In this document: piece after piece, positions 14,940 through 44,870 of the stretch
How the letters are laid out: the number at the start of each line of letters is the position of its first letter
Numbering within the stretch: the stretch's first letter is position 1
DNA from: Octopus vulgaris
Taxonomy: Eukaryota
Direction of reading: 5' to 3'
Assembly (NCBI GenBank): GCA_951406725.2
Contig: OX597825.1
Location: 33,914,001 to 33,978,000, forward strand
DNA: 64,000 nt
Program-made: the position numbers and the translations under genes
The notes under the pieces: model-generated
What the model was told of the DNA's origin: nothing
Seen by the model: the letters and a program-made list of their open reading frames with translations, nothing else
Database searches by the model: none

Positions 14940-15387
14940 TCACTTAGATTCCATATCAGTATACGTCATTTCATTTTTACCTGAGCATAAATCCTTTTCA
15001 GCTGAATTTACATAATATCCTTGATTCTCGGTGAAACATAAATCACTGTGAACAGTACATGAGCAATTTTCATTTAAATATATATCATTTATATCTGAAT
15101 ATATATTCTTTTCAACCATAAATATATCTTCTGCAACGGAATATATATTATCTTCAACCTTACATCCACCTTTTGCAACTGAAAATGCCTCAATGGAATG
15201 CAATTCCCTTTCCATCATGCAAGGATCATTTCTAATTGAATGTGCATTATTTGGGGGCAATATCTCAGCTGTTTGCTGTTTCAAGGTATTATTTGGTTGT
15301 GATTCTATCTCCTCTGGTAAACAGGTCCTTGTGGTACTCTTCTCGGTCATTTCTTCAGATATCAAATTTGATTTGGATTTCTTGTAC
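14940..15387 (-). CDS. PLAT receptor coding exon 9 (terminal): basic juxtamembrane segment and acidic Tyr-motif cytoplasmic tail
   Basis: Acceptor gctaacattttcttagacacag|G (an in-frame alternative AG gives a start at 15393). Phase 2 matches the TM exon. Reads YKKSKSNLISEEM...EDNIYSV..EKNIYSDINDIYL...MTYTDMESK*; homologous to 1-378. Confidence 0.85.
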
Positions 15388-15924
15388 CTGTGTCTAAGAA
15401 AATGTTAGCATATTTAATCAGACAACATTAAGTAGATTTTAGAATTAAATTTTGTTAACAATCACAAAAAAAAAATACTTCTTACTAATTTTTTTAATAA
15501 TGATAATGATGGTTTCAAAATTTGGTACAAGGCCAGCAATTTTCGGTTGGAGATTAATTAATTGGCAAATATTGTATTGACCCCCAAATGAATAAAACAT
15601 TAAGTTAACCTCAGTAGTATTTGAACTTAGCATGTAAAGATCCAGAAGAAATGCTGCTAAATATAGTATTTAACATGACAACAACTGTCAGTTTGATTCG
15701 TCCTAATAATAATAGTAATAATCTGTTTTATAGGCTCATGGTCTGAAATTTAGGAGGAGAGGGTTAGTCAGTTGCAGTGACTCCAGTACTCAGCTGGATG
15801 AAAGGATGATGGGTGAAGTTAGCCTTGATGGTATTTGAACCCAGAACATAAAACCAGATAAAATACTGCTCAGTATTTTGTCTGACAAGATAACAATTCT
15901 GCTAGCTTACCACCTTATCACAGC

Positions 15925-16170
15925 CTACAAAGGGCAAAAACGTGGTATGAGAAAATCCCAGGAGTCAACAAGAATGAAAGGTGCAAAATCTTGTGGGATG
16001 CAATGATTCAGTGCAATCCCCCTGACCAGACATTGGAAACTGAACCTTTTAGTGGTGGAAAAAAAAGGAAGACCATGCATGATAATCAACATAGCATAAC
16101 CTGGTGACAACAGGATCAAAGAGAAACAAGAAGAAAAACTGAACAACTATGACGATTTGAAGTGGGAAAT
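15925..16170 (+). mobile_element. R4/NeSL-type LINE fragment (restriction-like endonuclease region)
   Basis: Frameshifted translation ...CKILWDAMIQC...MIINIA*PGDNRIKEKQEEKLNNYDDLKWEI, typical of the RLE domain. Confidence 0.7.
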
Positions 16171-16594
16171 ACTTCACCATATTTGTGTGTTGGGGGTGGG
16201 CTAGATTTCTGATATTTGTCAGTTTTAGAATTGCTGATCAAATATGCTTGTGAGTGTAGCAGCAGCAGTAGCAGCCCAAAATCCAGCATATTTCTGGACA
16301 TAGTTTTTGTAATGAATGTAGAACCACTTGGACTGGTGATCAGAGAAATGTGTGCAAACACGTTTTCAGTCCTGTCAGCACCTCTTGCTTTTTGGTCATG
16401 TGATAGTCTAGCAGCATGACTAGGACTTTCTCACTTCAAATCGTCTAGCAGCATCACTAGGACCTTTGGGTACTTTTAACACAATTTGCTGTGTTGCAAG
16501 CATTGAAACATGTTTACAGTTAGAGTATAAACTTCTTCCCTTCGTCCTTCCAGTCTTATATGTCTTGAAAATGGGAGATGATGTGTTCTCTAAT
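16171..16594 (-). pseudogene. Fossil cytoplasmic exon with SEFIR/TIR-like sequence (IL-17 receptor-like)
   Basis: Acceptor ttttactctactag|A 89 nt after the TM donor, phase 2. With two frameshifts and a 37-nt insertion removed it reads ...PKVLVMLLDYHMTKKQEVLTGLKTCLHTFL*SPVQVVL...W / LLLLLLHSQAYL...HKYGEVF. The 3' end is cut by a LINE fragment. Confidence 0.5.
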
Positions 16595-16683
16595 CTAGTA
16601 GAGTAAAAATAGAGAAAAAAGTTAAAATAATAATGATACTCTAAAAGAGTCTCAGTAGTAAGATGTAGTTTTATATTACATAC

Positions 16684-16750
16684 CTGATAACTATGATGCA
16701 TAATATACAAAGCAGGACTATTGTTGGTATAAGAACACTGCAAAGAATTA
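16684..16750 (-). CDS. PLAT receptor coding exon 8: transmembrane helix
   Basis: ttaacatttcag|TA...ATCAG|gtatgt; 67 nt, phase 1->2; VILCSVLIPTIVLLCILCIIVIR. Confidence 0.88.
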
Positions 16751-16858
16751 CTGAAATGTTAAGAGAAAAATGGAAAGCATTAAAAAAGAGAATTTGCTTA
16801 TTTGATTTTTGCTTCTTTAATGGTCAAACATTTCAACAATTTGTAGCTTTTTTGTTAC

Positions 16859-17128
16859 CTTTAATATTATTTGAATTCATTCAAACACCATGTATCATTT
16901 TAATCAACTTTCATACTGTATTTAGGAGGAGAACCATCTCAAATATTCTTTCTCTGAAGTCATTGTTCTGATGAACATCAACACAATTTGCTGCTTTCTC
17001 ACTCCTCACACATCGTCTGGACTGGTCTGGGGTGGGTGGGCTGAAGTATTCAGTCATTCTGAATGGTTGACACCGAATCTCCACCTCCATCAAATATGAA
17101 ATTAATTGCATTTTACCACTAATCCACA
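16859..17128 (-). pseudogene. Fossil symmetric (1-1) 270-nt ectodomain-like exon
   Basis: cttacag|TG...AAAG|gtaaca; reads WISGKMQLISYLMEVEIRCQPF...RRCVRSEK...NCV but has two in-frame TGA codons near its 3' end. Confidence 0.5.
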
Positions 17129-42211: not shown

Positions 42212-42272
42212 CACCTGATGAATGACTGCGACTCAAAAATTTGAAGACAGCAGGCATGAAACGATCGTAGTG
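42212..42272 (+). ncRNA. Intact minimal type I hammerhead ribozyme, identical mirror copy
   Basis: CTGATGA 42215-42221, GAAA 42258-42261, GUA triplet ending at 42269. Confidence 0.8.
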
Positions 42273-42653
42273 TGATATTAATTATATTTTTTAATAATTT
42301 TGTTACATATTTAAATAATATAAATTAATCATATGTATTGGCTTAAGTTTTTCATTGTTTGATTTGCCTAATAGTGGTTTTGTCTCTAATTTAATATAAT
42401 ATATATATATATATAAAGCCATGAACTTTTCAGTTCCCCCATATATAAATATATATATATATATATATATATTTATATATGTATATATATATATATATAT
42501 ACATATATACATACATATTAATAAAAGGGATTTCAACCTTGTCTGATTTTCACATTTTATTTACAATCTTATAATGATATAATATAAGATAATATAATAT
42601 AATAAAATAAAATAAAATAATATAATAATAGAATGTTAAATGTTCGTTCTGAT

Positions 42654-42698
42654 TGAACTAGTACTTTCATGCATTAAATTCTGCAATCTTCAGGTTCA
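42654..42698 (-). ncRNA. Intact minimal hammerhead ribozyme downstream of the Penelope GIY-YIG ORF
   Basis: tgaac-CTGAAGA-ttgca...tgcat-GAAA-gtac-TA-gttca; 5-bp stem I, palindromic stem III. Confidence 0.8.
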
Positions 42699-43116
42699 TG
42701 TAGTAGTGGTGACAGTCATGCTTCACAATTTGACTGTAGCGAGATGATTAAGTCTGTGCCTTAAATACAGCTGTGTAGGCTCCAGATTGCTAGGTTTTGC
42801 AAACTGTATTCTGACCAATCAGTGTGTAGTATCACTCAATTACTTAAGCTGATTGTTTGGTTGAGCTGATTGGTTTAGGCGTCACGCTTTGTTGAACATG
42901 TCAAGAGTCCTGTATCTTAACCCTGGCCGAGGCAGCAATTGTTGGGCTATTTTTAGAAATGTTGTAAATAGCCTTTGTCAGAGATTTTTATATTTTTATA
43001 TTTCAATTGTCATCATCATCATTGTCAGCACCTTAATTATTGTTGCTAATGGTGATGGTAGTGGCAATAGAACTTTTAACACTAAATAAGATAATTTTCC
43101 TGCTATCTAAGTATTA

Positions 43117-43730
43117 TTATTGCTTATTTAGTTTGGGTTCGAATTTATCAATAAAATTCTTTTCTCTGATTTTCCTCTCGATTTCACTTGGACTGTGTAA
43201 TTTGTAGAATGGAAATATTATATATATTTTCCGACTACATGTTGCTAGGTGGTTACTTAAAGGTATCTGACGGACCTCTGGGTCTCTAATCTGTTGTCGG
43301 TGTACACGTGAGCATTCTGATAGTGCATTTCCTGTCTGACCTACATATATTTCTTCACAATTTGGGCATTTGATGCAGTAAATTAAATTTCTGCTTTTGC
43401 AGTTCATATTCGCGTTTGTGAATATTTTCCCGGTTTTTGTGTTTATATATTGACCGGTATGTATGAATTGGCATGTGCCACAACGGCTATCATTGCATTT
43501 AGATACAGTGAATGTTTGGTCTTTGTTGCTAAGGTCAAATTTTGCCTTTGTTAGTAATTTTTTCAAGTTTTTAGGCTGTCTTTTACTAAGAACCATAGCT
43601 CGATCCGTGATTATGTCTTTTAATTCATTACTTTGAGCAATGATTGGTAGGTTTGCTTTGGCAATGTTGAAGATATTCTGGTGACATGGGTTGTGTGTCA
43701 CTATGAATGGTATGACTTGTTCTTGTTTTC
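43117..43730 (-). mobile_element. Penelope-like element 3' ORF: C-terminal domain plus GIY-YIG endonuclease, 5' truncated
   Basis: KRQPKNLKKLL...CNDSRCGTC...NCKSRNLIYCIKCPNCEEIYVGQTG...RVHRQQI...REKNFIDKFEPKLN. Confidence 0.92.
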
Positions 43731-44824
43731 CTCTTATATATATATATATATATATATATATATATATATATATATATATATATATATATATATATACCCG
43801 CCTCTATATATCCAAGTTCTCGCCAGTCATTGCATTCCCCACCCCACTCCCTACTCAACAATACCCTGCCACATATATTATGACCCCCATACCTTGGGGA
43901 TATGTCCTGGCACTTGACATTTATCTCTCTCTTTCCTCCTTACTCTGCCATCCCATCTATACTCTGATCCCCGTTACTTGTGAGTATATCATGTTACTTT
44001 ACAACTATCTCTCTCCTGCTCTCATTCTTAATCACTCTCCCTCCTTCTCTTGCTCTTCCCTATGGCTAGGTAACCATGTATCTCCTCTACAGCAGCACGC
44101 CTTTATCTGTCCTCTTTCTTAACTCTCTCCCTCCCGCCCCCCTCTCTCTCTCTGGCTGGGTAACTATGTACGTCTTCTACAGCAAGGCATCTGTTTCTGT
44201 TTCTCTGTCTCTCTGTCACACACTAACCTTTCATCATCTAACACAAGCTCACCTCCTCCAATGCCCCCTTCCCTCACAAAGATTTCTTGTCTTGCAAGTT
44301 ACTTGGTGACCCTGCCAGTGCTAGTGCCACTTAAAAAGCATCCAGTCCACACTGTAAAGTGGTCAGCATTTGGAAGAGCATCCAGTTGTAAAAGCCATGC
44401 CAGGGACTGACCTTACCTGTGCTGGTGCCACATAAGAAGCACTGAGCTTACTCTGTGAAGTGGTTAGTGTTAGGAAGAGCATCCAGCCAAAAATCTATGC
44501 CAAAATAGACACAAACATATGGTGGAGTCTCTTGCCTGGTGAGCTTCTATCAAATTGTCCAATCCATGCTAAGATGGAAGGCAAATATTAAACGACAATG
44601 ATGATGATGAAGATATATATAAATATAAACATACACAATCAAACACACACACTGACAAATGCACACGCACAAAAACACACATACACACACAATCATGATA
44701 ATGCAGCTGAAATATTATATTGTAACATTATATAAAACTGAAATGAATCAATGCCTATGCTTTGATGAGATGAAAATTATTATTTTAAGAATTCATGAAC
44801 GAAGTTATAAGTTAGAATACTTAC

Positions 44825-44870
44825 TGTAAACTATTTGCAGGAGAAAAAGTAAAATGAAAATGCGATTCAT
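44825..44870 (-). CDS. PLAT receptor coding exon 1: start codon and signal peptide
   Basis: tttatttactttcag|attATG...TACA|gtaagt; MNRIFILLFLLQIVY(S); phase 1 joins exon 2. Confidence 0.85.

Follow-up and report, generated by a model that had tools for sequence, protein, structure and literature searches.

The window examined here, a stretch of 64,000 nucleotides (nt) from Octopus vulgaris (G000:C12:33,914,001-33,978,000), carries on its minus strand a gene, G2, whose nine exons (Table 1) encode a predicted single-pass type I receptor with an extracellular PLAT domain. A first-pass annotation made from the sequence alone had proposed nine in-phase exons with canonical splice sites and no stop, and recomputation of all introns, phases and residues bears this out. 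The eight introns run from GT to AG at the coordinates originally proposed, the joined exons amount to 1287 nt (428 amino acids (aa) plus a stop), the cumulative splice phases are 1,1,0,1,1,1,1,2, and the joined frame has no internal stop. G2 is a real, intact nine-exon gene, an observation that we grade as confirmed. Upon re-reading the spliced protein, the other proposed features are recovered as well, namely six Cys in the PLAT region (positions 42, 79, 83, 94, 139 and 151), five ectodomain sequons (residues 107, 132, 190, 230 and 240), two of which lie within the PLAT domain, a single strongly hydrophobic segment at about residues 257-279, the RYKKSK that follows it, and a 148-aa tail with seven Tyr. 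The type I single-pass topology likewise stands by sequence, with a predicted signal peptide and one transmembrane (TM) segment. The proposed propeptide ending in RSRR survives in part: the site is present in G2, and it is seen in only one of the seven genes in which exon 2 was found (cluster mapping recovered no exon 2 for G5), hence we reject it as a feature of the family. Because their 88% identity extends into the flanks, exons 5 and 6 constitute an internal duplication; blastn found no close copy of exon 7 in the cluster. All eight cluster genes have an AG 3 nt upstream of their ATG, so that an additional 5' non-coding exon ahead of the G2 start codon is likely.

G2 does not stand alone, and in this respect the picture changes. 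Eight tandem paralogs, G1-G8, lie between 33,841,429 and 34,374,777 of C12 (~0.53 Mb), within 664 kb that were mapped without encountering any N, and all eight gene models are open. Genome searches gave nine matches for exon 3, all inside 0.5 Mb, nine for exon 4, and nine for the tail exon, these last in the same region as those of exon 3. G2's exons recur with identical splice phases in the seven neighbouring paralogs, which carry, together with G2, zero, one or three PLAT domains per gene. The combination of signal peptide, one PLAT, stalk, TM segment and Tyr-bearing tail is found in six of the eight (G1, G2 and G5-G8), and to this extent the single-PLAT architecture holds. G3 combines three PLAT modules with a third stalk exon, whose acceptor is lost, and a short terminal exon, and is without a TM segment; G4 retains signal peptide, stalk, TM segment and tail and has no PLAT exon. 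In G5 the tail exon is tandemly duplicated (G000:C12:34,140,456-34,141,386). The modules of the cluster genes begin and finish in phase 1, so the duplication and loss of modules seen here would be permitted, and PLAT-loop deletions of 9 and 12 nt among the copies stay in frame.

Every named database homolog comes from Octopus, in keeping with the restricted distribution that had been suspected; no protein identical to G2 is present in the database searched, the best match being 74%. Automatic gene models for O. bimaculoides and O. sinensis link the counterparts of exons 1-5 in unchanged order. The three-PLAT form has an O. bimaculoides counterpart, and isoforms in that species differ by one stalk exon. 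Two further models, P0005 and P0006, are almost identical in sequence to G000 and are for that reason not independent evidence. P0005 fuses the PLAT-less gene (G4) to the three-PLAT gene (G3), and the O. sinensis four-PLAT model P0002 may likewise fuse several genes.

The assignment of the extracellular domain to the PLAT fold, which the first-pass annotation had made from motif order, is borne out by the predicted fold of a close homolog together with a sequence link to multi-PLAT proteins. An AlphaFold2 model of an O. bimaculoides domain, 79% identical to G2 exon 3, has eight strands at a predicted local distance difference test score (pLDDT) of 76, and all 29 Foldseek matches listed for it are lipoxygenases, lipases or R6IP1, entries known to contain PLAT domains. 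Upon comparison with 48,161 chains, nine are found at Z≥8, all of them PLAT-containing, and the next fold follows at Z 6.6; the best structural match is coral 8R-lipoxygenase (Z 12.4, root-mean-square deviation 2.5 Å over 109 aligned residues). Ten matches came from a profile search across 1.84 billion proteins, namely four members of the family, five multi-PLAT proteins and one Calx-beta repeat protein, and the alignments to the multi-PLAT proteins span the PLAT motifs GT, ERG, F and W-x-L in order. G2's extracellular domain is accordingly best described as having a predicted PLAT fold. Standard sequence tools see little of this: neither G2 exon 3 nor any of five homologous proteins reaches the Pfam PF01477 cut-off, none of the 29 PF01477 matches in the genome comes from the cluster, and the domain profile found nothing among PDB sequences at E≤10. 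The UniRef label of the homologs, "Ig-like domain-containing", we reject, as the fold search returns PLAT.

In the GTD, D-F-E-R-G-x-x-D and GHDN-type motifs, the acidic residues, whose positions are presumably Ca2+ ligands, are replaced in all nine domain copies by invariant S18, K42, S50 and N67. One source describes Ca2+ binding to the PLAT loops of some lipoxygenases and Ca2+ regulation that is not ubiquitous (PMC7436259). As the replacement extends to all nine copies, Ca2+-dependent lipid sensing becomes less likely than recognition of variable ligands; of the two roles first suggested, lipid-sensing or immune, it is variable non-self recognition that we favour. The variable loops contain one to five aromatic residues. 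Segment b5-b6, which is amphipathic, is modelled as helical in G2's exon 3.

Codon models, fitted with purpose-written code and empirical-Bayes site calls to the nine PLAT-domain copies (116 aligned positions), point to diversifying selection. The M0 omega is 1.34, ~39% of sites fall at omega 3.6, and the likelihood-ratio test (LRT) of M1a against M2a gives 27.8 (p 9e-7), with 20.2 for exon 3, 7.5 for exon 4, 12.0 and 10.9 for the two halves, and 19.0 for gap-free columns. Recombination was allowed for by simulating under the null with 1, 4 or 12 segments, and none of these 75 simulations reaches 27.8, the maximum being 14.6. The nonsynonymous rate (dN) exceeds the synonymous rate (dS) in 33 of 36 pairs of domain copies, which are non-independent, and exon 3 is 89.6% identical among copies as against 95.3% and 94.5% for its intron flanks. 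Of the 20 sites called as selected, 12 fall among the 37 positions of loops b1-b2, b3-b4, b5-b6 and b7-b8, as opposed to none among the 18 of the opposite loops (Fisher p 0.005), the remainder being distributed over strand (7/56) and terminal (1/5) positions. All but one of the 20 sites are no more than three residues away from the four alternate loops, a margin that was set post hoc. Since both termini of the eight-strand sandwich sit at the opposite end, as judged from strand order, the selected loops are predicted to face away from the membrane. In lipoxygenases and lipases this same end of the PLAT domain is the Ca2+- and membrane-binding end.

The tail, too, conforms to its original description as a Tyr-motif tail, with YxN and YxxM/I motifs among the seven Tyr of G2. 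YxN is found in all seven cluster tails and YxxM/I/L/V in six of them; the former is a Grb2-type and YxxM/I a PI3K/SH2-type motif. A 14-residue Tyr-bearing repeat occurs in ~2 copies in G2 and ~12 in G1, so that the count of possible phospho-sites varies between paralogs. Searches for relatives of the tail returned cluster genes only (3 of 118 candidates), Pfam gave no match for the G2 tail, and Atlas matches for TM segment plus tail are all below 0.9.

Evidence for expression comes from contigs of four sequencing runs (X1-X4), presumed to be RNA, which were compared with exons 5-9. In two of the four runs, X3 and X4, one contig each spans the exon 8/9 junction at the predicted bases, and the cluster family is spliced as modelled at this junction. 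The X3 contig differs from G2 at 13 of 186 nt and fits G1, G7 or G8, not G2; the X4 contig is unassigned. The junctions first proposed are thus supported by reads in part: exon 8/9 is bridged by a paralog-like contig, and exons 5-9 yielded no G2-specific spliced contig. Contigs with zero differences from G2 map within the last exon in three runs (X1, X2 and X4); X1 also has one of this kind in an intron, so that DNA or pre-mRNA may be their source.

Table 1. Exons of G2 and other features of the window, in window coordinates.
Feature	Position	Strand	Description
Exon 1	44825..44870	-	Predicted signal peptide, aa 1-15; AG acceptor 3 nt 5' of ATG; 8 copies in cluster; dN/dS 0.47
Exon 2	40022..40093	-	N-terminal spacer, aa 16-39, with RSRR, absent from paralogs
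Exon 3	36427..36683	-	PLAT strands 1-6 and three of four variable loops, aa 40-125; phase 1 to 0
Exon 4	29763..29856	-	End of PLAT (aa 126-156): strands 6-8 and a conserved pair of Cys; phase 0 to 1
Exon 5	25106..25225	-	Pro/Thr/acidic stalk module, copy one; donor GTGTGT; 88% identical to exon 6 including flanks
Exon 6	21519..21638	-	Stalk module, copy two
Exon 7	18907..18969	-	Basic membrane-proximal stalk
Exon 8	16684..16750	-	TM helix; three Cys; zero charged residues; 7 copies in cluster
Exon 9	14940..15387	-	Cytoplasmic tail, acidic, with two YxN, one YxxI and one YxxM among its 7 Tyr; ~15080-15183, 42-bp repeat
G1 tail-exon end	1..378	+	Convergent with G2; 14-aa Tyr-bearing repeat expanded to ~12 units
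Shared upstream segments	~62381-63286		Common to upstream regions of five paralogs, rare in unrelated 200 kb; possibly a 5' non-coding exon or promoter
Inverted intron copy	21052-21400		Inverted copy of intron sequence lying after exons 5 and 6
Integrase core	30609-31559	+	Pfam rve, E 1.7e-11; long terminal repeat (LTR)-type element in intron 3, strand opposite to gene
43-bp tandem repeats	31948-32125, 32760-32887		Near integrase
GIY-YIG-like frame	43117-43803	-	Intron 1; E 0.0037, below cut-off; probably a Penelope-type remnant
Reverse-transcriptase-like fragments	~45249-47096		Assigned by eye

Elsewhere in the genome, a more distant family of two-exon modules lies at C12 75.5-84.1 Mb, C10 16.8-16.9 Mb and on C26 (L137-L167), with at least 16 first-exon and at least 15 second-exon matches. 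It shares the 1-0-1 phases of the cluster, and its second exon is homologous (hhalign probability 85%, E 6.7e-6); in a search of 664 kb with that exon, G2 exon 4 ranks first (E 0.0016). The first exon scores an hhalign probability of 0.5%, and stalk, TM segment and tail show no detectable similarity to the cluster (in 200 kb for the tail). These modules are likely a distant sister family of the cluster. A search for the domain's donor with the cluster profile gave no significant score to any of the genome's 29 canonical PLAT matches, the best being L088 at E 0.065. The L088 protein (L088:1174-3057, plus strand, C23), of 627 aa and encoded by a single exon, comprises a signal peptide, a region rich in Thr, a canonical PLAT that exceeds the Pfam cut-off, a long mucin-like stalk of Ser and Thr, a C-terminal TM segment and a short tail, and appears to be an unrelated second type I protein with an extracellular PLAT; two homologs were found among 84 candidates. 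Six clustered canonical PLAT exons at C20 70.1-70.5 Mb (L079-L085) resemble, by eye, the N-termini of lipoxygenases.

Taken together, these observations incline us, with moderate confidence, toward a family of diversified recognition receptors, likely sensing non-self, in which a stalked PLAT domain would bind variable ligands and the tail would signal. The PLAT domain would be held out on a likely glycosylated stalk of a single-pass surface receptor, and its loops under positive selection, at the end predicted to face outward, would bind variable non-self ligands. Upon binding, receptor clustering could allow a Src/Syk-type kinase to phosphorylate the YxN (Grb2-type) and YxxM/I (PI3K/SH2-type) motifs of the tail. 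The three-PLAT paralog might then be secreted and serve as a multivalent binder or decoy; the paralog without PLAT could be an adaptor-like copy or a relic, and diversification would presumably be driven by microbes or parasites. A bolder form of this proposal, which we hold only tentatively, would regard the PLAT domain as a variable antigen-binding head, its four selected loops working as the complementarity-determining regions (CDRs) do in an Ig V domain, and the cluster (with its membrane, secreted and headless forms) and the distant C12/C10/C26 family together as an undescribed germline-encoded system of non-self receptors signalling by Grb2/PI3K-type tyrosine motifs.

Several results weigh against a recognition receptor of this kind. 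In the selection analysis, the nominal 5% level is exceeded in nine of the 75 null simulations, and the site calls, made with our own code and empirical Bayes, rest on a poorly supported tree. Rapid change is not limited to the ectodomain: selection is likewise detected in the tail (LRT 18.0; 6.1 for its N-terminal part), and dN/dS exceeds 1 in the stalk (1.46), tail (1.18) and TM segment (1.11). When G2 exon 3, whose 85 aa make up three quarters of the domain, is folded by itself and without an alignment, pLDDT is 71 and the best match, 5-lipoxygenase at Z 5.3, is tied with FlgD. A pattern search of the seven tails found no canonical immunoreceptor tyrosine-based inhibitory motif (ITIM); a loose match to the corresponding activation motif (ITAM) occurs in one tail, that of the PLAT-less G4, and not in G2, whose TM segment contains no charged residue. 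At the sole bridged junction, moreover, the one assignable contig is paralog-like. Finally, reproductive and self-recognition proteins evolve similarly fast.

In another reading, which we consider rather unlikely, the variable PLAT tips would bind one another or host surface proteins as a code of cell identity, serving self/non-self discrimination, gamete recognition or cell sorting. Such a code would leave an identical pattern of selection, would suit the modular phase-1 exons and the isoforms with and without a stalk exon, and could draw its binding partners from the larger distant family; the diversity observed, however, is between paralogs, and a secreted multivalent member would fit an opsonin or decoy better than adhesion. 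Also improbable, in our estimation, is that the domain has kept an ancestral PLAT role as a sensor or carrier of lipids or other hydrophobic molecules, with paralogs tuned to different lipids, a role proposed for mite TuPLAT10 and plant PLAT1. The aromatics of the variable loops and the amphipathic b5-b6 segment, modelled as helical, would suit this role, and TuPLAT10, for which a signal peptide and TM segment are predicted, is proposed to bind phosphatidic acid (bioRxiv 10.64898/2026.05.13.724795). The loss of the acidic motif residues from all nine copies speaks against it, however, and some 39% of codons at omega 3.6 would be unexpected were the ligands constant host lipids; if the lipids were microbial, this reading would overlap with that of a non-self receptor. 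It is very improbable that the genes are decaying duplicates or a chance chain of exons with no function. The dN/dS values near or above 1 in most regions, the 74% best database match and the absence of G2's own junctions from reads covering exons 5-9 might suggest as much, but 54 of the domain's 116 positions do not vary among copies, omega 0 fits ~37-40% of codons, none of 300 neutral simulations keeps all nine domain copies free of stops, and homologous models stand in the annotations of two other Octopus species. The invariant positions and the failure of neutral simulations to stay open support a cluster that functions as a coding family.

The diversified recognition receptors known are built mainly from immunoglobulin (Ig), leucine-rich repeat (LRR), lectin and scavenger receptor cysteine-rich (SRCR) domains, and we know of no other case in which a PLAT domain serves in variable recognition of outside molecules. 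If the recognition receptor is real, a PLAT-based one would add a new scaffold, and cephalopod immunology would gain concrete, expressible candidates with a mapped variable surface. The cluster is apparently an undescribed, positively selected set of receptors built on an unusual ectodomain: in the main texts searched (supplements of octopus transcriptome papers lying outside that scope) we found no paper describing the cluster genes or any receptor that joins a PLAT ectodomain to a Tyr tail, and the locus identifiers of the cluster return no papers. The family is invisible to Pfam, labelled "Ig-like" or "uncharacterized", and apparently mis-joined in gene models such as P0005, which would account for its having been overlooked.

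With the PLAT/LH2 superfamily, which takes in the N-terminal domain of lipoxygenases, the C-terminal domain of lipases, R6IP1, polycystin-1 and multi-PLAT proteins, the cluster domain shares the predicted eight-strand sandwich and the motif order GT, ERG, F, W-x-L; it differs in falling below the PF01477 cut-off, in its replaced acidic residues, six Cys and two sequons, and in its setting, since it is the only folded part outside the cell in a predicted type I receptor, as opposed to standing beside an enzyme or in the cell interior. Single-PLAT proteins of plants and mites come nearer. In Arabidopsis PLAT1 (PMC4232524) and mite TuPLAT10 (bioRxiv 10.64898/2026.05.13.724795) one PLAT is accompanied by a signal peptide and a single TM segment, both predicted, and spider mites show a lineage-specific expansion of 21 single-PLAT genes, many of whose members Pfam misses (PMC6288829), a further resemblance to the octopus genes. 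These proteins, proposed to be lipid carriers or docking proteins, are under 200 aa, and no stalk or long tail is reported for them, whereas G2 has 428 aa with stalk, TM segment and 148-aa tail. The profile search of 1.84 billion proteins gave no match to them, and an Atlas feature match to plant clusters (0.87-0.88) is a lead only. The first-pass annotation had called the architecture unrecognised; signal peptide, single PLAT and one TM segment prove to have precedent in plants and mites, and the long Tyr tail with diversifying selection has none in the literature found.

The acidic, non-catalytic tail with YxN recalls the transmembrane adaptors SCIMP, LAT and LIME, from which G2 differs in its signal peptide and its ectodomain of ~240 residues, theirs being very short. 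Pfam SCIMP matches of the paralog proteins are weak (E 0.006-0.009; 16.9-17.4 bits against a cut-off of 27), as is an Atlas lead at 0.86; lying below every threshold, they show no homology. KIR/LILR-type paired receptors form diversified receptor clusters in vertebrates, and the octopus genes resemble them as a tandem cluster with diversifying selection on what, from strand order, would be the ligand-facing surface. They differ in an ectodomain that is PLAT and not Ig, lectin or epidermal growth factor (EGF), and in having neither a canonical ITIM nor a charged TM residue. In the snail Biomphalaria, clusters of single-pass receptors (PTC1/GRC, PTC2 and LG5R) are reported to map to parasite resistance (PMC13712769). 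With both the snail clusters and KIR/LILR, the octopus family shares, by analogy only, its tandem arrangement, single-pass members, variable ectodomain, soluble or truncated forms and Tyr-bearing tails.

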